64,000 nucleotides of DNA from Escherichia phage radambza. The notes under the pieces were generated by a model. That model was not told the DNA's origin and searched no databases. It saw only the letters and a list, made by a program, of their open reading frames with translations. Numbering within the stretch: the stretch's first letter is position 1; each line of letters starts with the position of its first letter. Made by a program: the position numbers and the translations under genes. Of this stretch, positions 5,889 through 42,691 are shown piece after piece. The stretch is taken from the sequence record MN850639.1. One strand, 5' to 3'.

Positions 5889-6488
5889 TTATTTTACCCC
5901 TTTGGAGTCTACATCTAGATGGATAGTATATTCTGGTGGCTCTTGTCCTTCTTCATAAACCAACTCACCATCAACAATGACACGCTCAATAATACTTCCA
6001 CGTTCATCCTTCAGGACTGAGTTTTTTACAAGAGTTACAACAAGAGGTGCAGAATTTTCGAAATCTGTATTGAGATAAGTATAGTCATTCGGGATAGCTC
6101 CAGTGTCTAGTACTGTAGCTCCTGTTTCTTCAAGGATTAAATCTCTGACTGAACTCATCTCTAATCGTTGTTTAAGCTCAAGCATAATACTGTGAGCACC
6201 TTTACCATTCACCGTAATTAATACTGGAATCTGAAAAGCAATTCTGTAGCAAACTACATCATCCTCAACAAACTTATCAAGAACCCAACCATAAGGTGTT
6301 GCAGCATCTTGACAATATACGGTAATAAATGGCTGGTCAGGTTTTAAACCTTTGTCATTTGAGTTATCAGAAGGGTAAGCTCTAATTACATTTGGTCTAT
6401 TATTCTTATCACGAGCTAATCTGTGACCAATAACATCCACTAAGGTTCTAACTAGACCTTTTTCAAGTTCTGCTGTTTCTAACTGCAT
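5889..6488 (-). CDS. head-tail joining / tail completion protein (putative)
   Basis: 199-aa ORF between capsid and sheath genes. Confidence 0.4.
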   Translation of the reverse strand: MQLETAELEKGLVRTLVDVIGHRLARDKNNRPNVIRAYPSDNSNDKGLKPDQPFITVYCQDAATPYGWVLDKFVEDDVVCYRIAFQIPVLITVNGKGAHSIMLELKQRLEMSSVRDLILEETGATVLDTGAIPNDYTYLNTDFENSAPLVVTLVKNSVLKDERGSIIERVIVDGELVYEEGQEPPEYTIHLDVDSKGVK

Positions 6489-15064: not shown

Positions 15065-15140
15065 TGGAGAATCCGAAGGGACTCGAACCCTTATAAACCT
15101 GTTTTGCAGACAGGCACATAGCCATTTCTGTCACGGATTC
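15065..15140 (-). tRNA. tRNA-Cys (anticodon GCA)
   Basis: Manual cloverleaf: 7-bp acceptor GAATCCG/CGGATTC, T-arm with TTCGAGT loop, anticodon loop cTGCAaa, encoded CCA. Confidence 0.7.
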
Positions 15141-15144
15141 AAAT

Positions 15145-15237
15145 TGGAGGAAGATACCAGACTTGAACTGGTACACCGATTTCTCAGCTACTGGCAGTTT
15201 AGCAAACTGCTCCCTTACCTTTTAGGGTTAATCTTCC
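15145..15237 (-). tRNA. tRNA-Ser (anticodon GCT), type II
   Basis: Perfect acceptor GGAAGAT/ATCTTCC, anticodon stem GCAGT/ACTGC loop ttGCTaa, long variable arm, encoded CCA. Confidence 0.7.
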
Positions 15238-15238
15238 A

Positions 15239-15973
15239 TTATTTCTGTAATGCGCTCTTCATTTCTGGTGTTGCAATAGTGTCAATTACACCAGTTTTAC
15301 AGGCATCATCAAACCAGTCTGGTAAGATACCTGCTAAGAACCCATTGATATTCGTTTTAAGGTACTCTGCAATAAGGGCAGCTTCTTCTTCAATCATCTG
15401 CACAACTTCATCTGCATAAGCTGTAATCTTTGAGATACCTTCATTAATCTTACTAACAGCTTGGTTAGCTAAATCAGAAATAGTATCAAGACCTTTGTCA
15501 ATAGCGTCTTGTAAATCACTTAATACATCATTAACACCGTCTAGTGCACTGTTAATCGTATCAATAGCTTTTTGACCATACTCTGTAGCAACACCCATAA
15601 TACCACTAAATGGTGTACAGCCAACTTGTTCACCTGCTGCACTCATAACATTAGAATAACCTTTTGCTACCTGCATACGTGATGAAAACTCATCAATGGA
15701 CTTTTGACCGTAATCTGTCAGTGTTTTGGTGGTTGATGTAGTGCTTGTTAGACTCGTGGTAAAGCTGTTAAGCAGAACTGTTGTAAGTCCAGCAGCAACA
15801 AGCTTATCCTTTACTGTAGGGTCTGATACAGAGCTAATAGAGCTTACAAGTGATGTAGAGGCAGCTACGGTTCCACCGAGAACTGCTGCACCAGTAATAA
15901 GGGGGTTAGAAAACCCTTTACCAGTTTTTAAGAGATTAAAAATCTCCTTACCTTGTTCTGTCATCTCTTTCAT
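15239..15973 (-). CDS. hypothetical protein embedded in tRNA cluster
   Basis: ORF-track GTG start at 16036 overlaps tRNA-Phe; trimmed to ATG at 15971-15973 (MKEMTEQGKEIF...), about 244 aa. Confidence 0.5.
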   Translation of the reverse strand: MKEMTEQGKEIFNLLKTGKGFSNPLITGAAVLGGTVAASTSLVSSISSVSDPTVKDKLVAAGLTTVLLNSFTTSLTSTTSTTKTLTDYGQKSIDEFSSRMQVAKGYSNVMSAAGEQVGCTPFSGIMGVATEYGQKAIDTINSALDGVNDVLSDLQDAIDKGLDTISDLANQAVSKINEGISKITAYADEVVQMIEEEAALIAEYLKTNINGFLAGILPDWFDDACKTGVIDTIATPEMKSALQK

Positions 15974-15989
15974 TAAGCACCTTTGAAAT

Positions 15990-16066
15990 TGGTAGTCCAG
16001 TGGGATTTGAACCCTCTTCTCATGTTTTTCAGACACGCGCTTTAACCATATAAGCTACTTGGACTA
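15990..16066 (-). tRNA. tRNA-Phe (anticodon GAA)
   Basis: Acceptor TAGTCCA/TGGACTA, anticodon stem CGTGT/ACATG loop ctGAAaa, T-loop TTCAAAT; 3' end register ambiguous by one nt. Confidence 0.6.
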
Positions 16067-16071
16067 TAAAT

Positions 16072-16147
16072 TGGGGTGACCTACGGGATTTGAACCCGTA
16101 TAGACCATGTTCACAGCATGGGTCATTACCATTTATGATAAGGCCAC
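16072..16147 (-). tRNA. tRNA-His (anticodon GTG)
   Basis: Acceptor GTGGCCT/AGGTCAC, anticodon stem CCATG/CATGG loop ctGTGaa, perfect T-arm, encoded CCA. Confidence 0.7.
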
Positions 16148-16178
16148 ATTTAAGGACTCTCGTAAGAATCCTTAGAAG

Positions 16179-16254
16179 TGGCAGCGGCATAAGGATTTGA
16201 ACCTTAATAAGACAGCTTCAGAGACTGCTGCATTGCCAGTTATGCTATACCACT
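16179..16254 (-). tRNA. tRNA-Gln (anticodon CTG)
   Basis: 76 nt; acceptor with two G-U pairs; anticodon loop ctCTGaa; T-arm TAAGG/TTCAAAT/CCTTA; encoded CCA. Confidence 0.6.
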
Positions 16255-16259
16255 AAATT

Positions 16260-16338
16260 TGGTACTCCATATCGGATTCGAACCGATACATAACACAGAT
16301 TTTAAGTCTGGCCTCTCTGCCAATTGGAGTAATGGAGC
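16260..16338 (-). tRNA. tRNA with Leu-type anticodon TAA, short variable arm, 5' end ambiguous (16330 or 16338)
   Basis: Perfect T-arm ATCGG/TTCGAAT/CCGAT, discriminator A, encoded CCA; anticodon stem only 4 bp (CAGA/TCTG), loop cTTAAaa. Confidence 0.45.
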
Positions 16339-16340
16339 AT

Positions 16341-16416
16341 TGGCGGGGGATGTTGGAATTGAACCAACTTCTTCGATTTCAAAGACCGAGGTTTTAACCT
16401 TGTAAACTAATCCCCT
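16341..16416 (-). tRNA. tRNA-Gln (anticodon TTG), 1:72 mismatch
   Basis: T-arm GTTGG/TTCAATT/CCAAC, anticodon stem TCGGT/ATCGA loop ctTTGaa, encoded CCA; first acceptor pair A-C. Confidence 0.5.
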
Positions 16417-16424
16417 TTAAATCT

Positions 16425-16982
16425 TTACTTTCTCAGTGGATGAATAAAGAATGCCAACATAACTCTTTCCCTTGAGAATGCTCTTTCTTCTGGGACAACA
16501 CTTTTTAGTTTCCATCCAATATAAATTCTCCAGTAAAATTGTTTACCAAAGATTTTAATTGATGGGATAAAAGCGAATAATCCCCAAGCATTCCTGTTCC
16601 ACATTAGGAGATAACCAGTCTGATTATCTTCAGGGTTAGAACTTACGTTGATATTACCTTTCCACTTAGTAACATCTTTTACATCTCTTCCTAACACATG
16701 GTAAGAGAAGTTATAAGCTTTGTTTCTCCAGAGCCATCCAACTCTTTGCATGTAGACACCTAGTTTACCAATCCATCTAATATTAGCCCATCTTTTAACG
16801 TGACCTTCATCACCATCAATTGGGTTGTCATATGTCTCCATCCATCTGAATCCGAAAGGTAAGTGTCCTTTCTTCTCACTGTAGAATGGAACTACAAAAG
16901 GTGCTAAGATAACTGCTAAGATTGCTGCAAATGGCTCTAACAAAGCTAAGAAAATCCATGAAGCATACTTTAAGTATCTCAT
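16425..16982 (-). CDS. membrane protein (N-terminal transmembrane segment, Trp-rich), function unknown
   Basis: 185 aa, ATG start; hydrophobic N-terminus IFLALLEPFAAILAVILAPFVVPF; embedded between tRNA genes. Confidence 0.55.
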   Translation of the reverse strand: MRYLKYASWIFLALLEPFAAILAVILAPFVVPFYSEKKGHLPFGFRWMETYDNPIDGDEGHVKRWANIRWIGKLGVYMQRVGWLWRNKAYNFSYHVLGRDVKDVTKWKGNINVSSNPEDNQTGYLLMWNRNAWGLFAFIPSIKIFGKQFYWRIYIGWKLKSVVPEERAFSRERVMLAFFIHPLRK

Positions 16983-17001
16983 CTAAATAGCCTCTTAAAA
17001 T

Positions 17002-17079
17002 TGGTGTTCCAAGACGGATTCGAACCGTCACTAATACAAGGTTTGAGCTTGCATCCTCTGCCAATTGGGATACTGGAAC
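17002..17079 (-). tRNA. tRNA with Leu-type anticodon CAA, short variable arm
   Basis: Acceptor GTTCCAG/TTGGAAC, T-arm GACGG/TTCGAAT/CCGTC, anticodon stem GCAAG/CTTGT loop ctCAAac, discriminator A, encoded CCA. Confidence 0.5.
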
Positions 17080-17080
17080 A

Positions 17081-17155
17081 TGGTACTCACTAAAGGACTT
17101 GAACCTTTTTCTTCATCTTGTAAGGGTGATGTTTTACCATATAAACTAAGCGAGT
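17081..17155 (-). tRNA. tRNA-Val (anticodon TAC)
   Basis: Acceptor ACTCGCT/AGTGAGT, D-stem GTTT/AAAC, anticodon loop ctTACaa, encoded CCA. Confidence 0.6.
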
Positions 17156-17159
17156 GTGA

Positions 17160-17250
17160 AAGAGGTCTGAAGTTGTGCCGCTAACTCAACTCCGTGGAAT
17201 TTGTTACGGTCTTCAGTTGACTCAAAGCGGTCTTTCACTTGACCTCTGAA
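17160..17250 (-). ncRNA. structured non-tRNA element (candidate small RNA or processing structure), strand uncertain
   Basis: Terminal inverted repeat AGAGGTC ... GACCTCT enclosing nested stems (AGTTG/CAACT, CCGT/ACGG, GACCGC/GCGGC-like); no T-loop or anticodon arm. Confidence 0.3.
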
Positions 17251-17251
17251 T

Positions 17252-17327
17252 TGGTGCTCCCACAAGGATTCGAACCCTGATAAGTTGCTTACAAGGCAAC
17301 CGTAATAGCCAATTATACGATAGGAGC
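17252..17327 (-). tRNA. tRNA-Thr (anticodon TGT)
   Basis: Acceptor GCTCCTA/TGGGAGC, perfect anticodon stem GTTGC/GCAAC loop ctTGTaa, encoded CCA. Confidence 0.7.
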
Positions 17328-17334
17328 ATTAATT

Positions 17335-17409
17335 TGGAGCATCCAGAGGGAATCGAACCCTCAACCTCAGTTTGGAAGACTGTAATTTTCCCGTTTAAAC
17401 TATGGATGC
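17335..17409 (-). tRNA. tRNA-Gly (anticodon TCC)
   Basis: Perfect acceptor GCATCCA/TGGATGC, T-arm GAGGG/TTCGATT/CCCTC, anticodon loop ctTCCaa, encoded CCA. Confidence 0.65.
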
Positions 17410-17415
17410 ACTAAT

Positions 17416-17491
17416 TGGTGGAGAAGCAGGGAATTGAACCCTGTACTTAAGTTTGCAAAACTTATGTTTTAACCATGTAAACTACATCCCC
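17416..17491 (-). tRNA. tRNA-Ala (anticodon TGC)
   Basis: Perfect anticodon stem TAAGT/ACTTA loop ttTGCaa, T-arm CAGGG/TTCAATT/CCCTG, encoded CCA; one acceptor mismatch. Confidence 0.7.
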
Positions 17492-17497
17492 AATGTT

Positions 17498-17573
17498 TGG
17501 TACAGGTGGAGGGAATTGAACCCATCGTCTTACTGATTAAGAGTCAGCCGCATAACCATTTTGCTACACCTGC
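17498..17573 (-). tRNA. tRNA-Lys (anticodon CTT)
   Basis: Acceptor GCAGGTG/CACCTGT, anticodon stem GCTGA/TCAGT loop ctCTTaa, encoded CCA; paralogous to the tRNA at 18731-18806. Confidence 0.6.
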
Positions 17574-17580
17574 ATTAATT

Positions 17581-17657
17581 TGGTACACCTAGAGAGATTC
17601 GAACTCACACTGAGCAGATTCTAAGTCTGCTGCCTCTACCAGTTGGGCTATAGGTGC
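17581..17657 (-). tRNA. tRNA with Leu-type anticodon TAG, short variable arm
   Basis: Perfect anticodon stem GCAGA/TCTGC loop ctTAGaa, acceptor GCACCTA/TAGGTGT, discriminator A, encoded CCA; 77 nt. Confidence 0.55.
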
Positions 17658-17915
17658 ATTAAATCTTTTTAGAGAACTTCTAAGAACCTGAGCAACAAGG
17701 TTCCACAACAAGCGACTAATAACCTTAGAAGCCCTCTAAAAAGACCTAAATAGGTCTTTGCATAGTCTTGTTTAATCCGGTGACTAGAACCTTTGGAGAG
17801 CTTGATATTATCTCTTCTCCGTGACACCTACTAGGTGTTTTATCAGTGTGTACGACAATACACGAGGGATACCAAAGCAACATCCGAATGAAGCTTGGCT
17901 TTAAATCTTATTAGG

Positions 17916-18003
17916 CGGTAAGTAAAGGAGTCGAACCCTCACCGTATCTCTACAGTGGCAACTGTTTTCAAGACAGTTTGGCTACCATTAGCCGCTACCT
18001 ACC
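17916..18003 (-). tRNA. tRNA-Ser (anticodon TGA), type II, CCA not encoded
   Basis: Acceptor GGTAGGT/ACTTACC, perfect anticodon stem ACTGT/ACAGT loop ctTGAaa, long variable arm. Confidence 0.65.
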
Positions 18004-18016
18004 CCTAATAAGACTT

Positions 18017-18099
18017 TGGCATGGGACGGAGGAGTTGAACCCCTTTGAAACGGTTTTGGAGGCCGTTGCTCATGCCTTAGAGTCTTAACATCGTCCCAT
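18017..18099 (-). tRNA. tRNA-Trp-like (anticodon CCA) with enlarged D region
   Basis: Perfect acceptor ATGGGAC/GTCCCAT with encoded CCA, T-loop TTCAACT, anticodon loop ctCCAaa; 26 nt between acceptor and anticodon stem instead of about 19. Confidence 0.45.
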
Positions 18100-18242
18100 A
18101 CTATAATTCGAAGCTTACCGTATTATCTCAACACTGTAAAGCCCCTTCTCAGATTATTTACATGTTCTGGAAAACATGAGATACAGACCACCTCCTTACA
18201 CGGAGACCCGATAAGGTCGTCTAAGCAATCTGCTAACTAAAT

Positions 18243-18324
18243 TGGTCGAGGCGGCAGGACTCGAACCCGCATACTCCACTTACTCGGTTAACGGCGGTTT
18301 AGAAGACCGCTGAGATACGCCCCG
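18243..18324 (-). tRNA. tRNA-like element, atypical (anticodon-like loop TCT; no recognisable D arm; 23-nt variable region)
   Basis: Acceptor CGGGGCG/CGCCTCG, T-arm GCGGG/TTCGAGT/CCTGC, encoded CCA, perfect stem GCGGT/ACCGC with loop ctTCTaa, but only 7 nt between acceptor and that stem. Confidence 0.35.
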
Positions 18325-18572
18325 TAATTATCTTTAAAGACTCTCTTAGAAAGCCCTTAAAGATGCCCACTTTATTAATCATACCGTGGGCGAGTACGCC
18401 AAATTCTTTGATGAGGGATTGGAAGACCTCACTGGTGTTTAGCCTATCAAGCTACTGCCAGAAAAACATTGTCGTTTGCATTTATTTTAAATTTGCAAAA
18501 TAGACGCTACGCAACGAAAACTAAGGTTACTATAAAGTAGTCACATCTCAATGTCAACAACTTTATTGAAAG

Positions 18573-18647
18573 TGGTTGTAGGTGAGGGTATCGAACCCTC
18601 TTCTAACGGTTATCAGCCGTTTGCATTACCATTTATGCTAACCCACA
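18573..18647 (-). tRNA. tRNA-Ile (anticodon GAT)
   Basis: Perfect anticodon stem AACGG/CCGTT loop ctGATaa, T-arm GAGGG/TTCGATA/CCCTC, encoded CCA. Confidence 0.7.
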
Positions 18648-18649
18648 AT

Positions 18650-18726
18650 TGGAGGTTCAGGTGGGAATTGAACCCACATTCATAGGGCTTATGAAACCCT
18701 TGCATTACCTTATCTGCGACTGAACC
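18650..18726 (-). tRNA. tRNA-Met (anticodon CAT)
   Basis: Perfect acceptor GGTTCAG/CTGAACC, anticodon stem AGGGT/GCCCT (three G-C pairs) loop ttCATaa, T-arm GTGGG/TTCAATT/CCCAC, encoded CCA. Confidence 0.65.
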
Positions 18727-18730
18727 ATAT

Positions 18731-18806
18731 TGGTAGAAGTGGAGGGATTCGAACCCATCGCCTGTCAGATTAAAAGTCTGCCGCATCACCATTCTGCTAC
18801 ACTTCC
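18731..18806 (-). tRNA. tRNA-Lys (anticodon TTT)
   Basis: Acceptor GGAAGTG/CACTTCT, anticodon loop ctTTTaa, encoded CCA; paralog of 17498-17573. Confidence 0.6.
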
Positions 18807-18810
18807 ATTA

Positions 18811-18954
18811 AATTATCTTTGTAGATAAGCTACCCAGACTTGCTTAAGGTCTGTAGCGATGTGCCTTTTTGGGTTTAAATCTAGAATTTACCCTTTCACC
18901 CTTTGTGGTCGCATACTCACAGGTAAGCTTAATAACTTATCTACAAAGATAATT
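18811..18954. repeat. perfect 19-bp inverted repeat pair (18811-18829 and 18936-18954) flanking a 106-bp spacer
   Basis: AATTATCTTTGTAGATAAG and its exact reverse complement CTTATCTACAAAGATAATT; internal hairpin CAGAC-ttgcttaag-GTCTG. Confidence 0.6.
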
Positions 18955-19005
18955 ACCAGACCGTTGTTTATCATCTTAAGTGCTACCATTACACCAACTC
19001 GACAT

Positions 19006-19031
19006 CTGCCGAGTGAAGGAATCGAACCTTC
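19006..19031 (-). pseudogene. tRNA 3'-half-like fragment (T-arm plus acceptor 3' strand, no 5' partner)
   Basis: Perfect T-arm GAAGG/TTCGATT/CCTTC but no complementary acceptor 5' strand or anticodon arm within 100 nt. Confidence 0.3.
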
Positions 19032-19234
19032 GCCTTTTCTTTACCGAGAAATAGATTGTTTAAGTTTTGCTGTAAACGGTCTTCTGTAAATTTGTTGAGC
19101 CAGACCAAGTTTTAGATTTTCAAAATTAAATTGGCTTGAAATTTCATACGTTCTTGCTGTATTTGGTCTTCTGCTCCTTTAAAGAATACTCGTAAGAACT
19201 CTTTAAGGGAGGGGCTAAATAGCCCTCTCAAAAT

Positions 19235-19310
19235 TGGCGAGGTATGCGAGAATCGAACTCGCGGCTCAGGAGAGACAATCCCGTATTTTACCCATCTAAA
19301 CTAATACCCC
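19235..19310 (-). tRNA. tRNA-Asp (anticodon GTC)
   Basis: Acceptor GGGGTAT/ATACCTC, T-arm GCGAG/TTCGATT/CTCGC, anticodon loop ttGTCtc, discriminator G, encoded CCA. Confidence 0.7.
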
Positions 19311-19314
19311 AAAT

Positions 19315-19743
19315 TCATGTACCATTTCTTAGATACTTCTTCCTACGTCTTTCTGGACTATAGTTTCTTCTACTCTCAGCATTCTTAGCCAGCCTACACT
19401 CATCGCATCTACAGCCTTTAAAATAGCTATACGCAGTTCCGTGTTTAATTGTTTTATGTTTTCTTTCACTTATCTGTGCTGGTCTTGCTGCTTTCATGTT
19501 ACATTTAAGATGACTATAAGAAATATTATCTAGTGAAAAGAAAAGCTCTTTTGCATTCTCACTATGTCTCCACGGAATCTTATGCTCGATAGAGAAATCA
19601 TCCCTAGTCATTTCTTTTCCGCACTGAAAACATCTATTTTGATTTGTCTTACATATAAAATCGAATAGCAAATCTTTTACTAGTCTGTTTTGTGCAGTTC
19701 CCAAACTCATACCAAGTTGTGATTTGTATACTTCATCTCTCAT
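19315..19743 (-). CDS. HNH homing endonuclease
   Basis: CFQCGKEMTRDDFSIEHKIPWRHSEN...SHLKCN HNH motif; ORF-track start at 19836 overlaps tRNA-Tyr, trimmed to ATG at 19741-19743. Confidence 0.75.
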   Translation of the reverse strand: MRDEVYKSQLGMSLGTAQNRLVKDLLFDFICKTNQNRCFQCGKEMTRDDFSIEHKIPWRHSENAKELFFSLDNISYSHLKCNMKAARPAQISERKHKTIKHGTAYSYFKGCRCDECRLAKNAESRRNYSPERRRKKYLRNGT

Positions 19744-19765
19744 AACTAAGTATCTCGCTAAGTGT

Positions 19766-19853
19766 TGGTGTGCCGTGTAGGAGTCGAACCTACCGAGTCT
19801 CAATGACAAGGGATTTACAGTCCCCACCGCTACCATCTACGGGATAACGACAC
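19766..19853 (-). tRNA. tRNA-Tyr (anticodon GTA), type II
   Basis: Acceptor GTGTCGT/ACGGCAC, anticodon stem GGGGA/TCCCT loop ctGTAaa, long variable arm, T-arm GTAGG/TTCGACT/CCTAC, encoded CCA. Confidence 0.7.
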
Positions 19854-19864
19854 ATTTAATTTTG

Positions 19865-19938
19865 CGGTTAGTCAGGGATTCGAACCCTGTGCCATTCGCT
19901 TAACAGGCGACCGCACATACCTTATGTGCTTCCTAACC
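19865..19938 (-). tRNA. tRNA-Asn (anticodon GTT), CCA not encoded
   Basis: D-stem GCAC/GTGC, anticodon loop ctGTTaa, T-arm CAGGG/TTCGAAT/CCCTG. Confidence 0.6.
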
Positions 19939-20022
19939 ATATTTAGTATTACCAGACCGTATCTTTCAATTTTTTCCGCTAAAAATTTAATAAATGTTGC
20001 TGTAAACGGTCTTCTGTAAATT

Positions 20023-20099
20023 TGGAGGCGGGTGCAGGAGTCGAACCTGCCGATACCATGCTAATGAGACATGTGAGACGCCCTTTCTCTATACCCGCA
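20023..20099 (-). tRNA. tRNA with CAT anticodon (Met, initiator or Ile-lysidine type), unpaired 1:72
   Basis: Anticodon stem CATGT/GCATG loop ctCATta, T-arm GCAGG/TTCGACT/CCTGC, encoded CCA; first acceptor position U opposite C. Confidence 0.6.
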
Positions 20100-20190
20100 A
20101 TTCTTAATGACCAGACCAAATCTCTTCTTTGTCCGATTTACCTTCAGATGAATAAGATTAAGTTTGCTGTAATTGGTCTTCTGTCAAAAC

Positions 20191-20268
20191 TGGCGTTCCA
20201 GAAGGGATTTGAACCCTCAAATATCCACTTTGAAAGAGTGGTGACTATACCATTTTGTCTACTGGAAC
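20191..20268 (-). tRNA. tRNA-Glu (anticodon TTC)
   Basis: Perfect acceptor GTTCCAG/CTGGAAC, perfect anticodon stem CCACT/AGTGG loop ctTTCaa, encoded CCA. Confidence 0.7.
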
Positions 20269-20275
20269 ATTAATT

Positions 20276-20352
20276 TGGTCTCTGTTGGAGGACTTGAACC
20301 TCCGGCCTTACCGCCCCAAACGGAACGCTCTACCAAGCTGAGCTAAACAGAG
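20276..20352 (-). tRNA. tRNA-Pro (anticodon TGG)
   Basis: Perfect acceptor CTCTGTT/AACAGAG, D-stem GCTC/GAGC, anticodon loop ttTGGgg, T-arm GGAGG/TTCAAGT/CCTCC, encoded CCA. Confidence 0.65.
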
Positions 20353-30531: not shown

Positions 30532-30542
30532 AATATCTTAAG

Positions 30543-30572
30543 AGCCTCCTTAATTGGGGGCTTTTTAATTTT
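30543..30572 (+). terminator. rho-independent terminator ending the plus-strand operon
   Basis: AGCCTCC-ttaatt-GGGGGCT hairpin followed by TTTTTAATTTTTAT. Confidence 0.6.
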
Positions 30573-30629
30573 TATAAAATTTTATCGGTTGTTCCAACCT
30601 CTGGGTCACCATCACATGTGAATAAAATA

Positions 30630-31850
30630 TCTACCCTTCTTAACAACCTTCTTAAGCTTACTCTCTATATATAGTTATATAGTACTATATAGTATCTTAG
30701 TATCTATCTAGTGGTCTTAATAGCCCCTCTGTATAAACCTTCTAAACACTCTTCTAACAAGCCTTCTTAACAACCTATACAATCACCTTAACCATCCCTC
30801 TACACCCTCTTAGAAGCTCCTATACACCTCTTAATCTCTATGTCAGCTATGTTACCCTCTATAGGTGTTCACTAGGTATTACTAAACCTCTATATAGACT
30901 GTTTTAACAAACTTAACAGGAATATCTTTACAGACCTTATCTCACAAGGTCTAACACGGTACTAACAAGGTATCTTATAAGCCTGTTATTACCTGTATTT
31001 TTAAAAGGCTGTATAGGTAATTATTCAGAATCTTAAAATTTTTATAAAATAGGACTATCAAGTCATTTTTTAGGGTCTTTGAAGGAACTGAAAAATATCT
31101 GTAGAGGATGTATATCTGCTTGGTAGCCCTTAACAGCTCCCTTACAAGTACTTTGCAAAATTTTAAAATATCCTTAACAATCTCTTAACAGTTCTCACAT
31201 CTTCTTAACAACTCTTCAAAGGTCTTAACAGTTTCTTAACAGAACTAACAAGGGCTTAACAGTTTTCTAGGGATTGGTAACAATACCAATTAACAAGTGC
31301 TGAATAGTCTTTACAGAGGCTTAACAGATGACTAACAAGAGCTAACAAGTTAATTTTAAAGAGTTATTTTGTTAAGATAATTAACAAGTTCCTAACAAGT
31401 GTTTAATCTTTTTAACAAGCTGTTAACATGGTCACTACTCTTTTCTTATCGTTCCCTTTCCTTTCTTAGTGATTCTTTAAACATACCTCTTAAAAGCTCT
31501 GTATAGCTCTGCATAACCCCTTTTAAGTCTCTTCCTAGTATCTACAGCCCAACTATACAGACACCTCTTTATAAGGCTTTACAGAAGCTTTAAAGGCTAT
31601 GTCAAAGACTCTTACAAGGCTTTTACGTGGTCTTAACAGAGATTTAACAAGGGGCTAACAAGTTGCTAACAAGTGCCTTAAAAGCATAACTATGTAGGAT
31701 TTGTTAAGAAATTGTTAAGAAAATGTTAAGGGGGCTAGCATTTACGTAACTTTTAAGCTACTTCAAAGTAACTTTTAAGCCCCTATAACATACTTTAAGA
31801 CACTAACAAGCCCTTTTTAGTTATTCACAAGATAGCTAACGAGATGATAA
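30630..31850. repeat. iteron-like array: about 30 copies of YTAACAR, densest at 31175-31430 and 31633-31720
   Basis: Motif starts at 31175, 31186, 31206, 31226, 31237, 31246, 31257, 31278, 31291, 31322, 31333, 31343, 31382, 31393, 31413, 31424; spacings mostly 10-11 bp or multiples; inverted copies TTGTTAAG at 31691-31720. Confidence 0.6.
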
Positions 31851-31956
31851 AGCTTACACCCTTATAAGATTCTTTTAAGGCTCTGGGAAGCTCTAGGAAG
31901 GGCTTTTTAGAGTGGGTTAATATGATTGCTTAAGTTAGGTTGATAAGGCTGTTATA

Positions 31957-31986
31957 GAGCGTTTTAGAGCGTTTTAGAGCGTTTTA
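31957..31986. repeat. perfect tandem repeat, 3 x 10 bp (AGAGCGTTTT)
   Basis: agagcgtttt agagcgtttt agagcgtttt read directly. Confidence 0.8.
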
Positions 31987-32153
31987 GTGGTTGCCCTTCC
32001 CTTTCGGGTTATGGGCTTACATTTAAGGGAAAGATTAAGTTGATTTGATAAAAGGCTATAGAGTAGACTATAGAGTTATTGCTTTTTAAGGTCTGGTAAA
32101 GTTCTGACTTGTTAGGTGGGTTTTAAGATTCTGGAAAGGAATTTGATAGACGT

Positions 32154-32176
32154 AAAAAAAGCCCCATTTAAGGGGC
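32154..32176 (-). terminator. rho-independent terminator at end of the minus-strand small-gene array
   Basis: Plus AAAAAAA then GCCCC-atttaa-GGGGC; hairpin then U-run on minus strand; second hairpin GGGGCT-attt-AGCCCC at 32190-32205. Confidence 0.55.
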
Positions 32177-32215
32177 TGTAAAGGTATCTGGGGCTATTTA
32201 GCCCCGTTGCGGCGT

Positions 32216-32464: not shown

Positions 32465-32569
32465 TTTTGAATCTCCAGTTTAGGAAGTTGATTAAGGGTT
32501 TTATTTAGTGGGGAAGGTCATTCCCTCCCCGTTGATTGACAATTTACAAACTTTTGATTGTCTCGTCAA
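32465..32569 (-). promoter_or_regulatory. conserved promoter/leader cassette, type A
   Basis: Minus strand TTGACG-17nt-TAAATT, leader hairpin GGGGAGGG-aatga-CCTTCCCC (G-U pair), then GGAGATTCAAAAATG. Confidence 0.5.
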
Positions 32570-33637: not shown

Positions 33638-33730
33638 TTTTTGAATCTCCAGTTTAGGATTTTGTTTAGTGGGGAAGGTCATTCCCTCCCCGTTGATGTG
33701 TAATTTACAGATTTTTATCAGGCTTGTCTA
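33638..33730 (-). promoter_or_regulatory. conserved promoter/leader cassette, type A
   Basis: TAGACA-17nt-TAAATT, hairpin, conserved SD context. Confidence 0.5.
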
Positions 33731-36523: not shown

Positions 36524-36904
36524 TCAGTTAATTTTGAAGATTGTTACATAACCATCGCTCCCGATGATTTGTGATACTCCAGCTTTTTCTACTTGATAGC
36601 CCATATTTTCAAGATGATAAATAGCGTCATCGTAACCATATGCGCCACCCTGATAACGTCTCTTATCGCATCTTATCAGGTTTTTTCCACGCCCAGCAAG
36701 TGCATGTAGAATTGTTTTTTCACTTGAAAGAGTGCCATCTAACATGGTTGCCGTGTAATGGTTGATTTTATTCCCGTTGATATCATACTTAAAATTGAAC
36801 GAGTGAACAACAATCACATTACCTTTGAAATTTTCATCAAGTGACTTCTCCAGTACGCTACGAAAGTTGTCTTTGTTGATGAATTTAGGCGCACGATATT
36901 TCAT
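36524..36904 (-). CDS. hypothetical protein (cassette gene 9)
   Basis: 126 aa; conserved leader. Confidence 0.55.
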   Translation of the reverse strand: MKYRAPKFINKDNFRSVLEKSLDENFKGNVIVVHSFNFKYDINGNKINHYTATMLDGTLSSEKTILHALAGRGKNLIRCDKRRYQGGAYGYDDAIYHLENMGYQVEKAGVSQIIGSDGYVTIFKIN

Positions 36905-36997
36905 TTTTGAATCTCCAGTTTAGGACTTTATTTAGTGGGGAAGGTCATTCCCTCCCCGTTGATGCAAATACTAGATAACCCCGTTCAAAGAGTCAAG
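36905..36997 (-). promoter_or_regulatory. conserved promoter/leader cassette, type A
   Basis: TTGACT-18nt-TAGTAT, hairpin GGGGAGGG-aatga-CCTTCCCC, SD. Confidence 0.5.
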
Positions 36998-37123
36998 AAA
37001 AATTTTAAAAATATCTTTGGCAAAACTGTAATGAAACGGGCGCACACGACTACCACAAAACAGAACACAAATCAAGAATTATTTTTCAATCCGCTACAAA
37101 TTTTTCTCTTGACTTTTGGGGAG

Positions 37124-37352
37124 AGGGGGAGTAAGAGGGGGAGAGGGGTTGGTCTGGCTCTCTATAAAAACCTACCTGCACGATTCTAAAATGATTTTTC
37201 TTGCCCGACCTGAGCGGGGTCTGCACGTTTTGAAAATGAAAAAGCCCTTTGGAGATTACCTGCACAGTTTGAAAATGAATTTTCTCTTTGGAGTTCAAAA
37301 TTTTCTCTACAGATTTCTATACAGAACTCTACCTGCACAATCCTGAAATGAA
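37124..37352. repeat. intergenic repeat cluster: purine tract GGGGAGAGGGGGAG... and four copies of CTGCAC-N5-6-GAAAATGA
   Basis: Copies begin at 37176, 37221, 37260, 37333; two are followed by AAAAAGCCC. Confidence 0.6.
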
Positions 37353-37424
37353 AAAGCCCTCCTTACCTGAAAAATTTACCAGATAAGAAAGGCTTAGTCT
37401 ATTATGAATATTCTACAGAGTTTC

Positions 37425-38210
37425 TTAGTTCTTTGCGTCTAAGAAGGTAACTTCTGGTGAAGAGAAGATTGCCTCGATATCCTCATCAGTTCTTGCATAG
37501 ATATAAGCTTCTGCATCACTACCAAATGTTACAGCAATTCTGTGATTGCTCTTCGACAGGTGGGTAACTAGAGCGTTGCTTAGAGACATCTTTTCAACCG
37601 GAGGGTTACTTTGATGTATCTTACCTTTTCTTCGTCTGAAGAGGGTAACTGCATTATCCGTGAACACTGCTACACCTGCAAAGTATCCTGGCTCACAGTA
37701 GTTTTTCCAACCTGAGAGTAACTTGTGGTACATATCACCTTCATAGACATACAGATAGACATCTACACTCTTCATCACCTGATTGATGATAACTGTGACA
37801 GCTTGAGGGTCAAGTCCACCGATACCTGCACCAATCATAGGTAGACCGACTTTCTTCAACTGATTCACTTCACAGTATCTGTTAAGTTGCTTCAAAGATG
37901 ACTCTAAAGCACTGTATCGGGCATCTTTACCAGTCTTAAGCTGAGTGTAAAGGTTAGCTATACGACCTTGTTTTAAGCGTGCTACAGAGAAATTACCTAG
38001 TAAATTCTCACAAGGTTTGTGACCTATACCACCTGCATAGAGATAAACTTCTGTATCGGTCTCATATGCTTTTGGGTAAAGTTTAGAAATCTTGTCAGCG
38101 ATACCTGCACCCATTAGGTTCATGCAGTTACAACCATGACCAATGATGTCAAACTTACCTTTATCAAATGCAGCAAAGATATCACCATTGATGATTTTTA
38201 CAATACCCAT
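37425..38210 (-). CDS. macro domain protein (ADP-ribose binding/processing) with C-terminal extension
   Basis: 261 aa; N-terminal GDIF...DIIGHGCNCMNLMGAGIA and VGLPMIGAGIGGL are macro-domain glycine-rich motifs. Confidence 0.7.
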   Translation of the reverse strand: MGIVKIINGDIFAAFDKGKFDIIGHGCNCMNLMGAGIADKISKLYPKAYETDTEVYLYAGGIGHKPCENLLGNFSVARLKQGRIANLYTQLKTGKDARYSALESSLKQLNRYCEVNQLKKVGLPMIGAGIGGLDPQAVTVIINQVMKSVDVYLYVYEGDMYHKLLSGWKNYCEPGYFAGVAVFTDNAVTLFRRRKGKIHQSNPPVEKMSLSNALVTHLSKSNHRIAVTFGSDAEAYIYARTDEDIEAIFSSPEVTFLDAKN

Positions 38211-41480: not shown

Positions 41481-41540
41481 TGGTTCTCCTGTTTAGTTTA
41501 TCGTGACAACAATTATACAGCACTCTGCACAAAATACAAA

Positions 41541-41564
41541 TAAAAAAGGCCGCCGAAGCAGCCT
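41541..41564 (-). terminator. rho-independent terminator after rIIB (minus strand)
   Basis: Minus-strand AGGCTGC-uucg-GCGGCCT (UUCG loop, one G-U pair) then UUUUUA; the plus-strand version has a C-A mismatch. Confidence 0.6.
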
Positions 41565-41581
41565 TTTAAGAGAATTACTTA

Positions 41582-42691
41582 TTAGATTTCACGTTTACGC
41601 TGAGAAATAAGTTCGCCAGCAGTACCAACGATAACATGTAGAGCTTCAGTCTTGCCATCCCATGCTTTCAGAACATTACGCTGGCTATCAACGATAGCTG
41701 CAACTTCATAACGTGATGAACGCATTTTCATATCATTGTAATCAGTTGGAACAGATACAACATCTCGTGGGTGGACACGAACTTTCAGGATTGTATCACC
41801 TGAGAAGCTACGAACATAATCCCAAGCACCAACATGAAGACCTTGAGAGCAAGTCACGTTACGGTTATTATCAACCATCCAACGTGGCATCTCTACAATG
41901 TTACCCAAATCGTTAGGAACTTTGTAGGTGTGGGAGTCAACCAGCTTACCTTCACGAGTAGATACTTTCTTCCAACCAATGATGTAGCCTTCTTCATCAA
42001 TTTCAACATCAAGGTGAGATACAAAGCCCCAAAGTTGTTCTACAGAGTCTTTAGATGGGTTTTCCATCAGTTTTTCGAAGAACATCACAAGGCGTTCAAA
42101 GCCTTTATCTCCAGTCTTCATCATGTGAAGAATACGGTCAACCAGAGTAGAACGCATCTCAACAGCACCGTAGAATAGCTTGTCACCTTTGATTGTGATA
42201 GCACCCTGAGTGAAGTTTTCGATAGACTTACGAATATTCATCAGTTCAAAGGCTTTCTTGAACTCACCTTTCACAACATGAACTACAATCTCTTGATAGT
42301 TCGGATGAGTAGACTCAACAATTTCAGATTCTGAACCATAAGTCATAATTACAGAGTCGCCAGTAATCATGTACTCAATTTTGTCATCTTTCTGCATAGC
42401 TTCATGCAGTTTATTTACTGGAGCTTTCTGTACAGCATCTTTAACGACCTTTTCAACTGGTTTGTCAGCTTTCTTTTTAAATGTCTTAGCAACTTGCTTC
42501 AAAGTCTTCGTAGCTGGTGTAGAAGTTGCCTTCTTATCCCCTTTTAAAGTTGCTTCATGACGCTCTACAGCACGACCAACTGAACGGGTTGAAGTATTAA
42601 ATTTCTGTGCAATAGCTGTTTTAGTCAGCTTACCTTCTTTAACCAGTTTGTAAATTTCTGCGTCAATCTGTGCTTTAGTTTTAGTAGTCAT
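41582..42691 (-). CDS. rIIB: rIIB protein
   Basis: 369 aa; C-terminal KVRVHPRDVVSVPTDYNDMKMR and STLVDRILH / ENPSKDSVEQLW match rIIB blocks as I recall them; directly downstream of rIIA. Confidence 0.8.
   Translation of the reverse strand: MTTKTKAQIDAEIYKLVKEGKLTKTAIAQKFNTSTRSVGRAVERHEATLKGDKKATSTPATKTLKQVAKTFKKKADKPVEKVVKDAVQKAPVNKLHEAMQKDDKIEYMITGDSVIMTYGSESEIVESTHPNYQEIVVHVVKGEFKKAFELMNIRKSIENFTQGAITIKGDKLFYGAVEMRSTLVDRILHMMKTGDKGFERLVMFFEKLMENPSKDSVEQLWGFVSHLDVEIDEEGYIIGWKKVSTREGKLVDSHTYKVPNDLGNIVEMPRWMVDNNRNVTCSQGLHVGAWDYVRSFSGDTILKVRVHPRDVVSVPTDYNDMKMRSSRYEVAAIVDSQRNVLKAWDGKTEALHVIVGTAGELISQRKREI

Follow-up and report, generated by a model that had tools for sequence, protein, structure and literature searches.

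A Conserved Array of Four Direct Repeats Downstream of the Macro-Domain Gene in Felix O1-Type Phages: Probable Protein-Binding Sites in a Putative Control or Origin Region

Introduction

An array of four direct repeats lies in a non-coding gap of Escherichia phage radambza (MN850639.1), of which a stretch of 64,000 nt (the window) was analyzed here. Its closest described counterparts include the iteron origins, such as ori of phage lambda with its four O-protein sites and AT-rich region, oriE of phage T4, and the plasmid iterons. Like these, the array comprises 3–5 direct repeats that all point the same way and are confined to a single locus in each genome; it is non-coding, lies beside a conserved AT-rich stretch and combines conserved cores with free spacers. 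However, the distances in the array are irregular and long (37–77 bp), whereas iterons are tightly phased at 20–22 bp. Furthermore, no initiator gene was found in the phage, its replisome is T7 gp4-like, and the locus is far from the replication genes.

The operators of phage early-to-late switches, such as the p4 sites of phi29 and OL/OR of lambda, are also clustered copies of one site in a unique control region, beside strong host-type promoters and at a module boundary. In contrast to these operators, the array sites are asymmetric direct repeats instead of palindromes, and they are located 100–350 bp upstream of promoters without overlapping them.

The injection-stop region of phage T5 (Repeat Region 3) contains non-coding repeats that are more conserved than the neighboring ORFs, with the stop signal at 7.9% (bioRxiv 10.1101/866236). 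The array shares these properties of conserved non-coding repeats, and it also lies ~7–8% from a terminally repeated end and borders early genes. However, the T5 region has palindromes, inverted repeats, and consensus DnaA boxes in a 10-kb terminal repeat, whereas the array has direct repeats only, no significant DnaA match in the Felix-type copies, and a terminal repeat of 0.6 kb.

The type III antitoxin repeats, ToxI and phage pseudo-ToxI, resemble the array units of 37–45 nt. Both are tandem direct repeats of ~36–45 nt, found in phage non-coding DNA in the transcribed orientation, and both contain the 11-mer GTGCAG(C/G)TAGA. However, the overall similarity to ToxI does not exceed chance level, the array units fall short of near-identity and come after a terminator, and neither a toxin partner nor a host counterpart was found.

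PeSLs are promoter-stem-loop cassettes in plastic regions of T4-type phages. These cassettes and the 57-bp/39-bp repeats of Felix O1 are similar to the present locus, which borders a block of small genes that have a promoter, a hairpin, and a ribosome site of their own. The four-repeat motif does not belong to these cassette repeats; the array occurs once, upstream of the whole block, and is without promoter consensus or hairpin. At this locus, the Felix O1 genome paper (PMC3185647) gives only repeats of at least 24 bp and the terminator t13. In the literature, no paper was found that describes the array, or an origin, transcript starts or a regulator of Felixounavirus. On the comparisons reported below, it is a well-supported interpretation that the array is a new case of binding sites clustered as direct repeats in a control region or origin of a phage.

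Results

Locus and Flanking Genes

The 3 kb around the array matched ~245 phage records at 90–96% identity, nearly all of which belonged to Felixounavirus, the group with Felix O1, wV8, and their relatives. The window itself comes from a Felixounavirus genome, and its minus strand carries the genes across 32–64 kb. On the minus strand at 15065–20352, 24 tRNA genes were observed in clusters with short gaps between the clusters, which is typical of Felix O1-type phages.

The array was located in a non-coding gap of 520 bp (36905–37424) between the macro-domain gene and the first cassette gene. The first-pass annotation had underestimated the size of this gap at 430 bp. Its placement of the array downstream of the macro-domain gene was borne out, as the flanking genes are on the minus strand. 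The macro-domain ("phosphatase") gene (37425–38210, minus strand) encodes 261 aa and belongs to PHROG 335; residues 25–141 matched Pfam Macro (E = 1e-7), and no Pfam match was obtained for the C-terminal ~120 aa (window 37425–37800). The first cassette gene (36524–36904, minus strand; 126 aa) matched PHROG 4495.

In the sense of transcription, the order was macro-domain gene, t13, four repeats, mirror purine tract, AT-rich block, two sigma-70-type promoters and first cassette gene. The three ORFs called within the gap, 36935–37189 and 37116–37346 on the plus strand and 37086–37298 on the minus strand, are artefacts, as the annotation had supposed: searches of Pfam and PHROG matched them to no family, and they showed 2- and 4-nt indels compared with relatives.

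The Repeat Motif

The four motif copies were found on the plus strand exactly at the reported positions, 37176, 37221, 37260, and 37333. The pattern proposed for them, CTGCAC-N5-6-GAAAATGA, was exact in two of the four only. The form fitting all four copies was CTGCAC-N6-RAAATGA, which reads TCATTT-N7-GTGCAG on the minus (transcribed) strand. It matched four times, all within 180 bp, compared with 0.26 matches expected from shuffles, and no shuffle contained four. The full unit on the transcribed strand was (A/T)4-TCATTT-N7-GTGCA(G)(GTA), the core of which is an 18-base two-part motif.

The array spans 37173–37355, with start-to-start distances of 73, 39, and 45 bp from R1 to R4, all on the minus strand. 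The core of R1 (TTTTTCATTTCAGGATTGTGCAGGTA, 37330–37355) was invariant in an alignment of the gap across three genera (A1, see below). R2 (AAATTCATTTTCAAACTGTGCAGGTA, 37257–37282) was missing from the phiWec177-type genomes, which have three copies. R3 (TTTTTCATTTTCAAAACGTGCAGACC, 37218–37243) was identified by motif search and in A1, and the spacer GGTCGGGCAAGAAAAA upstream of R4 (AAAATCATTTTAGAATCGTGCAGGTA, 37173–37198) was kept in the Erwinia phages too. The R3–R4 junction was orthologous with the Erwinia units u2–u3. A degenerate fifth half-site, GTTTCATTACAG (37026–37037, minus strand; repeat family D5), was found between the promoters P1 and P2, and CGTTTCATT there was nearly invariant in A1.

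Allowing at most one mismatch, TCATTT-N7-GTGCA occurred in the 64-kb window as the four array copies plus one near-match at 41526–41543. No copy was found in the 24 kb of the close relative JK55 outside the range of the window, and the complete genome of Erwinia phage Ea_Tu10 contained exactly four copies at a single locus. Since it was found only at the array locus, this is not a genome-wide promoter or terminator motif. The enrichment that had been considered for it, genome-wide or in relatives, was absent across the genome, and conservation in relatives was strong.

The region around 41490–41590 (minus strand) contained terminator t2 (GGCTGCTTCGGCGGCC plus a T-tract), directly followed by TTATTTGTATTTTGTGCAG and a TATAAT box. 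The sequence TTATTTGTATTTTGTGCAG was a one-mismatch look-alike of the repeat motif within a probable promoter, and it was kept in the Moogle-like contig L049. A second motif cluster in this contig was resolved as the t2 terminator-promoter region and a near-match in coding sequence.

Terminator, Purine Tract, and Promoters

The terminator scan identified t13 at 37345–37395 (minus strand), an intrinsic terminator with a 17-pair hairpin and a T-tract, given as −21.8 kcal/mol in the Felix O1 paper (PMC3185647). The T-tract, TTTTTCATTT, doubles as the first half-site of R1. In Mooglevirus the stem was kept via one-sided changes (e.g., U-G to C-G), and no pair was changed on both sides.

The purine tract described by the annotation exists; it starts at 37118 instead of 37124 and contains one T. 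At 37118–37148 it forms a perfect purine (plus)/pyrimidine (minus) mirror repeat, GGGGAGAGGGGGAG-TAA-GAGGGGGAGAGGGG, in which arms of 14 nt flank the spacer TAA; its transcribed strand is rich in C. This is the homopurine mirror repeat with short spacer that characterizes H-DNA, and such a structure could form here. In 28 of the 52 distinct relatives, the array was followed by an unbroken stretch of 12 or more pyrimidines, which was absent in the other 24; genomes of the AYO145A/Mushroom type had unrelated sequence at this position. The tract is dispensable or optional, because about half of the relatives are without it, and the idea that it is part of a conserved unit was not supported.

The AT-rich block AAAAGTCAAGAGAAAAATTTGTAGCGGATTGAAAAATAATTCTTGAT (37071–37117, minus strand; 47 nt) was nearly invariant in A1, among three genera whose macro genes are ~70% identical at the DNA level. 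AT-rich DNA of the kind expected of an unwinding region was seen in this block and in the TTAACA stretch of contig L033 (below), promoter regions being AT-rich anyway.

The candidate promoter P1 (37047–37075, minus strand), TTGATT-17-TAGTCG, has a weak −10 element; TTGAYT and TA were conserved at 17-nt spacing in A1, and the counterpart in Moogle was TTGACT-17-TAGTTG. Promoter P2 (36968–37020, minus strand), found by the promoter scan and conserved in A1, is an AT-rich UP-like element followed by TTGACT-17-TAGTAT; among the promoters of the cassette block it comes first. On the plus strand, TTGACT-17-TAAGAG (37109–37137) was noticed by eye in A1, under the scan threshold, overlapping the purine tract. 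The −35 hexamer of this element was invariant, as was the TA of its −10; the −7 T was lacking in radambza, and AYO145A-type genomes had TTGACT-17-TAGCCT; as a candidate antisense promoter it is a lead only.

The leader hairpin of the first cassette, GGGGAGGGAATGACCTTCCCC (36937–36957, minus strand), was followed by a ribosome site. Identical hairpins were observed at 33671–33691 and 32510–32530, so that three cassette genes are preceded by it as part of promoter-hairpin-ribosome-site units; repeats like it were described in the Felix O1 genome paper (PMC3185647). In the RT-PCR of the same study, ORF13 (macro) and the cassette ORFs 16 and 20–22 were detected at 5 min, and ORF14, directly downstream of the array, and ORFs 17, 19, and 23 at 25 min (PMC3185647). 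These times describe an early region with some local timing differences and are consistent with local timing control.

Conservation of the Array in Relatives

An array of 3–5 copies was kept in Felixounavirus, Mooglevirus, Suspvirus, Kolesnikvirus, and the unclassified contig L033, always directly after the macro-domain gene. The whole gap could be aligned across Felixounavirus, Mooglevirus, and Suspvirus (A1), and the half-sites were invariant in 11 diverse genomes. The A1 spacers between the copies differed in sequence and length, but the cores did not. Among 52 distinct arrays with 191 copies, the half-site gap was always 7; each array had 3 or 4 strict copies, and the distances between copies were 37–45 or 73–77 bp, with no helical phasing of the sites.

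In Kolesnikvirus (Erwinia phages), the BLAST match was limited to the repeat block. The macro gene, terminator, four repeats, C-rich stretch, and early-type promoter followed in the same order, and in Ea_Tu10 a homologous macro gene was directly upstream of the array. The Erwinia repeats had the form TTTTTCATTTT-N4-TYGTGCATAG and were 37–39 bp apart. Between the window and the Erwinia phage, the macro proteins were 35% identical and the macro DNA ~57%, and TCATTT and GTGCA were identical in all copies.

The unclassified contig L033 (88 kb; IMG/VR contig 3300045988_063805) carried a stand-alone macro gene of 148 aa (37% identity to that of the window, E = 9e-33), whose product is the macro domain alone. 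Five motif copies in two groups (~600–1010) came after this gene, and the last repeat was followed by a very AT-rich stretch of ~170 bp in which TTAACA recurs roughly ten times. Between lineages, the genes that lie downstream of the array showed no homology, and the 126-aa first cassette gene was not kept as a neighbor in other genera.

Pattern scans of viral, bacterial, and metagenome sequences detected the array in Ounavirinae-sized contigs only, the remaining matches being unrelated tandem repeats, and nothing similar was present in 5,426 E. coli genomes or 72,556 plasmids (PLSDB). A two-copy repeat in the podovirus-like contig L025 was rejected as an array; no macro gene is nearby, and it is probably a chance pattern match. 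This 10.2-kb contig (L025/L104) contained, at ~6250–6330, two exact 50-bp tandem repeats with AATCATTTTAACATAGTGCAG, upstream of a promoter and packaging/portal genes; its portal protein matched Pfam Head-tail_con.

By these comparisons, the four sites were shown to be real, unique to the array locus and under strong purifying selection. It is almost certain that a protein docks at the array, which is most likely part of a control region or else of a replication origin. No other non-coding sequence found around the early region is as strongly conserved, and the conservation of the array goes deeper than that of the adjoining genes.

Candidate Binding Proteins and the Level of Action

In the sigma-70 scan of 37170–37360, no promoter was found within the repeats; by hand the best was R1 (8/12), and R2 and R3 lacked both the −11 A and the −7 T. 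A cluster of DnaA boxes (TTWTNCACA, at most one mismatch per repeat) was rejected, the Felix-type copies matching at 6/9 only. The Erwinia copies, (C/T)TATGCAC(A/G), fit the DnaA box at 8/9, which is at chance level (13 hits vs. 11 expected), and the Felix-type GTGCAGGTAG in place of the Erwinia GTGCATAG abolishes the match. No repeat was within three mismatches of the MarA/SoxS/Rob marbox AYNGCACNNWNNRYYAAAY, or within two of the RfaH ops element GGCGGTAGNNTG on the non-template strand. Consensus sequences for IHF, Fis, CRP, sigma-54, sigma-E, the MotA box, and Chi were compared by eye, and none fit all copies or lineages.

The possibility of a ToxI mimic was also rejected. Despite the common 11-mer, the similarity was at chance level (same strand; 0.05–0.97 of the shuffles scored at least as high), the units shared only ~20/40 nt, no toxin gene was adjacent, and Rfam gave no match. 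The ToxI query unit was confirmed (100% to pECA1039), and 75 small plasmids, from E. coli, Salmonella, and others, were found to carry it. The 36-nt ToxI repeat of Pectobacterium pECA1039 had 95–100% identity on 64 of the 75 matching PLSDB plasmids, which were mostly small and mobilizable, and their carriers (E. coli, Salmonella, Klebsiella, and others) are natural hosts of Felix O1-type phages.

Among the phage proteins are at least one small HTH_3 protein, of 99 aa, and a primase-helicase of the T7 gp4-like type (Toprim plus DnaB_C); neither could be linked to the motif computationally. No Rep-type initiator was found among the domains of the primase-helicase or in the annotation of the JK55 replication region, which lists polymerase and ligase.

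A structured non-coding RNA was rejected, with no compensatory changes and no Rfam match. In RNAalifold, none of the 37 predicted pairs had double changes, and the covariation term was −0.97 kcal/mol; queries of Rfam with the window, the Erwinia locus, and L033 gave no match even at E ≤ 10. The minus-strand fold had z = −2.5 with the large terminator helix included, the terminator being the only stable helix, and the plus strand folded worse than shuffled sequence. The fixed, A/T-rich half-site gap with varying spacers is the signature that protein recognition sites would leave, in principle on unstructured RNA as well as on DNA. Action on DNA is the simpler assumption, because most lineages have a strong terminator ahead of the array and no sign of RNA structure was seen.

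Position in the Genome

The direct terminal repeats of Felix O1-type phages are short: those of UAB_Phi87 were determined at 608 bp by Bal31 digestion and run-off sequencing, and the 581-bp direct terminal repeat of Pr103Blw (PhageTerm annotation) maps to window 31150–31735. By this mapping, ~6 kb (~7% of the genome) separate the array from one physical end, and the cassette block that runs to this end has the array at its inner edge. A genome terminus or packaging site was ruled out, since the terminal repeat is 5.4 kb from the array. The GC skew had no inflection at 37 kb, and the polymerase and primase genes were ~25 kb away.

The counterpart of the terminal repeat lies within 1.7 kb of non-coding DNA (30532–32215; 35% G+C) where the plus and minus gene blocks converge. 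This region has ~26 copies of YTGTTAR on the minus strand, by far the densest in the window, and the TTAACA of L033 is the reverse of the TGTTAA motif that fills it. Three tandem copies of TAAAACGCTC, all of them exact, were observed at 31957–31986 (minus strand), a short way outside the counterpart of the terminal repeat; the CGCTCT in them resembles the start of a boxA-type element.

Discussion

We propose, with a probability of roughly 0.35, that the array comprises DNA binding sites for one conserved protein controlling, or insulating, the adjacent early/middle promoters P1 and P2. The repeats read as sites because four copies occur against 0.26 expected, at a single locus, with invariant cores, a fixed gap and varying spacers. 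One sequence-specific protein would bind the four repeats, and its specificity would have stayed unchanged across Ounavirinae; that a protein binds, which protein it would be, and the regulatory outcome are inferred. The site, an A/T-flanked TCATTT and GTGCA exactly 7 bp apart, might suit two DNA-reading heads or a head-to-tail dimer. It would act between the terminator ending a long conserved transcription unit, of which the macro-domain gene is the last gene, and P1/P2, which would start the block of small, promoter-equipped early cassette genes. The bound protein may set the timing or strength of P1/P2, by activation or shut-off, or else may insulate them from read-through transcription. 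The conserved promoter-like elements 100–180 bp downstream of the array, the detection of ORF14 at 25 min, and the small HTH_3 protein are in keeping with this reading. The first-pass annotation had suggested a regulator-binding array at a module boundary, and this is still the best-supported reading, given the invariant cores, varying spacers, fixed half-site gap, and border between a conserved gene and plastic cassettes.

Several observations speak against control of P1/P2. The distance from the array to the nearest good promoter varies between genera, being about 100–180 bp in the Felix types and ~225 bp or more in the Erwinia phages and L033. On the downstream side, promoters and genes change from genus to genus, whereas the macro gene upstream remains linked to the array, which fits poorly with an element that acts on the downstream promoters. 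Proteins with a Cro/C1-type HTH usually bind palindromes, not direct repeats. Moreover, the invariance across genera is easier to explain by a factor of the core machinery or the host than by a regulator of accessory genes.

A replication origin, which the annotation had not considered, was judged nearly as likely as a regulator array, though it is tentative too. Here the repeats would be iterons, or loading or priming sites, beside a meltable AT-rich block, and transcripts from the nearby promoters would activate or prime replication. The single locus per genome, the 3–5 direct repeats in one orientation, and the long non-coding gap all suggest this, as do the nearly invariant AT-rich block after the array in the window and the ~170-bp TTAACA stretch in L033. 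Tandem promoters adjoin the array, and the primary origin of T7 has adjacent tandem promoters. A conserved core replication protein fits the invariance across genera, and GTGCA contains GCA, the trinucleotide recognized by SP6 gp4-type primase, while the primase-helicase of this phage is gp4-like. However, no initiator gene of the Rep, O or alpha type was found, and T7, whose replisome is of the gp4 type (Toprim plus DnaB_C) seen here, has promoter-based instead of iteron-based origins. The distance of ~25 kb to the polymerase and primase genes, the absent GC-skew inflection, and the irregular spacing are further points against an origin, and the 46–66 kb segment of Bas63 with the array was reported as uniformly non-essential (gene-level data). 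Neither the control nor the origin reading explains well why the array stays attached to the macro 3′ end, and this sustains the readings at the RNA level and as a signal of the end segment. At the RNA level, an unstructured 3′UTR array in macro read-through transcripts could be the target of a nuclease or RNA-binding protein, for instance by acting as decoy or sponge for a host defence (e.g., a type III toxin) or by controlling macro mRNA stability. Every copy is oriented with transcription, the array is tied to the macro 3′ end in every lineage whatever lies downstream, the units of 37–45 nt recall the type III antitoxin repeats, and ToxI-bearing plasmids are common in E. coli and Salmonella. 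We regard this as unlikely, given the strong terminator before the array in most lineages, units that are not near-identical over their full length, chance-level similarity to ToxI, and the lack of an Rfam family, of covariation, and of anything similar in the E. coli genomes and plasmids searched.

The annotation had offered tandem promoters as its other suggestion, i.e., four promoters, activator-dependent or for a modified RNA polymerase, feeding the cassette block. Phage early regions often have tandem promoters, the repeats have the orientation of the downstream genes, and the A/T-rich 7-nt gap is sometimes −10-like, as in TAGAAT (R4) and TAAAAT (R1 of mistaenkt and Erwinia u2). This suggestion did not hold up and is now quite unlikely: no repeat reached a sigma-70 −35/−10 match by scan or by hand, no −35 is at the right distance, and a phage-specific motif should recur before other genes, whereas this one is confined to the array. 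A boundary signal was considered by analogy with T5, in which a conserved host or virion-associated protein on the four sites would pause DNA entry, or stop replication or transcription derived from the end, for the terminal ~7% of the genome; we hold this to be very unlikely. If true, it would be the Felix O1 counterpart of the T5 first-step-transfer stop, with a different motif. The broader idea that the array marks the inner border of a terminal segment, for a pause or stop of DNA entry or another end function, is a long shot. Its position ~6 kb from the physical end, at the inner edge of a promoter-equipped early gene block, and the 8/9 DnaA fit of the Erwinia copies agree with such a role, but the T5 type of palindromes, inverted repeats, and consensus DnaA boxes is not seen here, where the DnaA match is at chance level. 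The terminal repeat is too far for a packaging site, and we know of no two-step DNA entry in Felix O1. There is hardly any probability left for neutral leftovers, function-less tandem duplications of the terminator tail, to which the left half-site TTTTTCATTT, the usual T-tract of radambza terminators, and the G-rich stubs upstream of each copy, similar to the 3′ arm of t13, might point. The cores are identical across genera in which the flanking protein is 35% identical, while the spacers decay; this idea is effectively refuted, because neutral drift would leave the opposite pattern.

Felix O1 and its relatives are classic phages for typing and biocontrol. The array provides a small concrete target, four 18-bp cores, for mutagenesis, pull-downs, and origin mapping. 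Once found, its binding partner would be the first regulator, or would reveal the first origin, for the subfamily, or the array may serve as a safe landmark for insertion or insulation in engineering.
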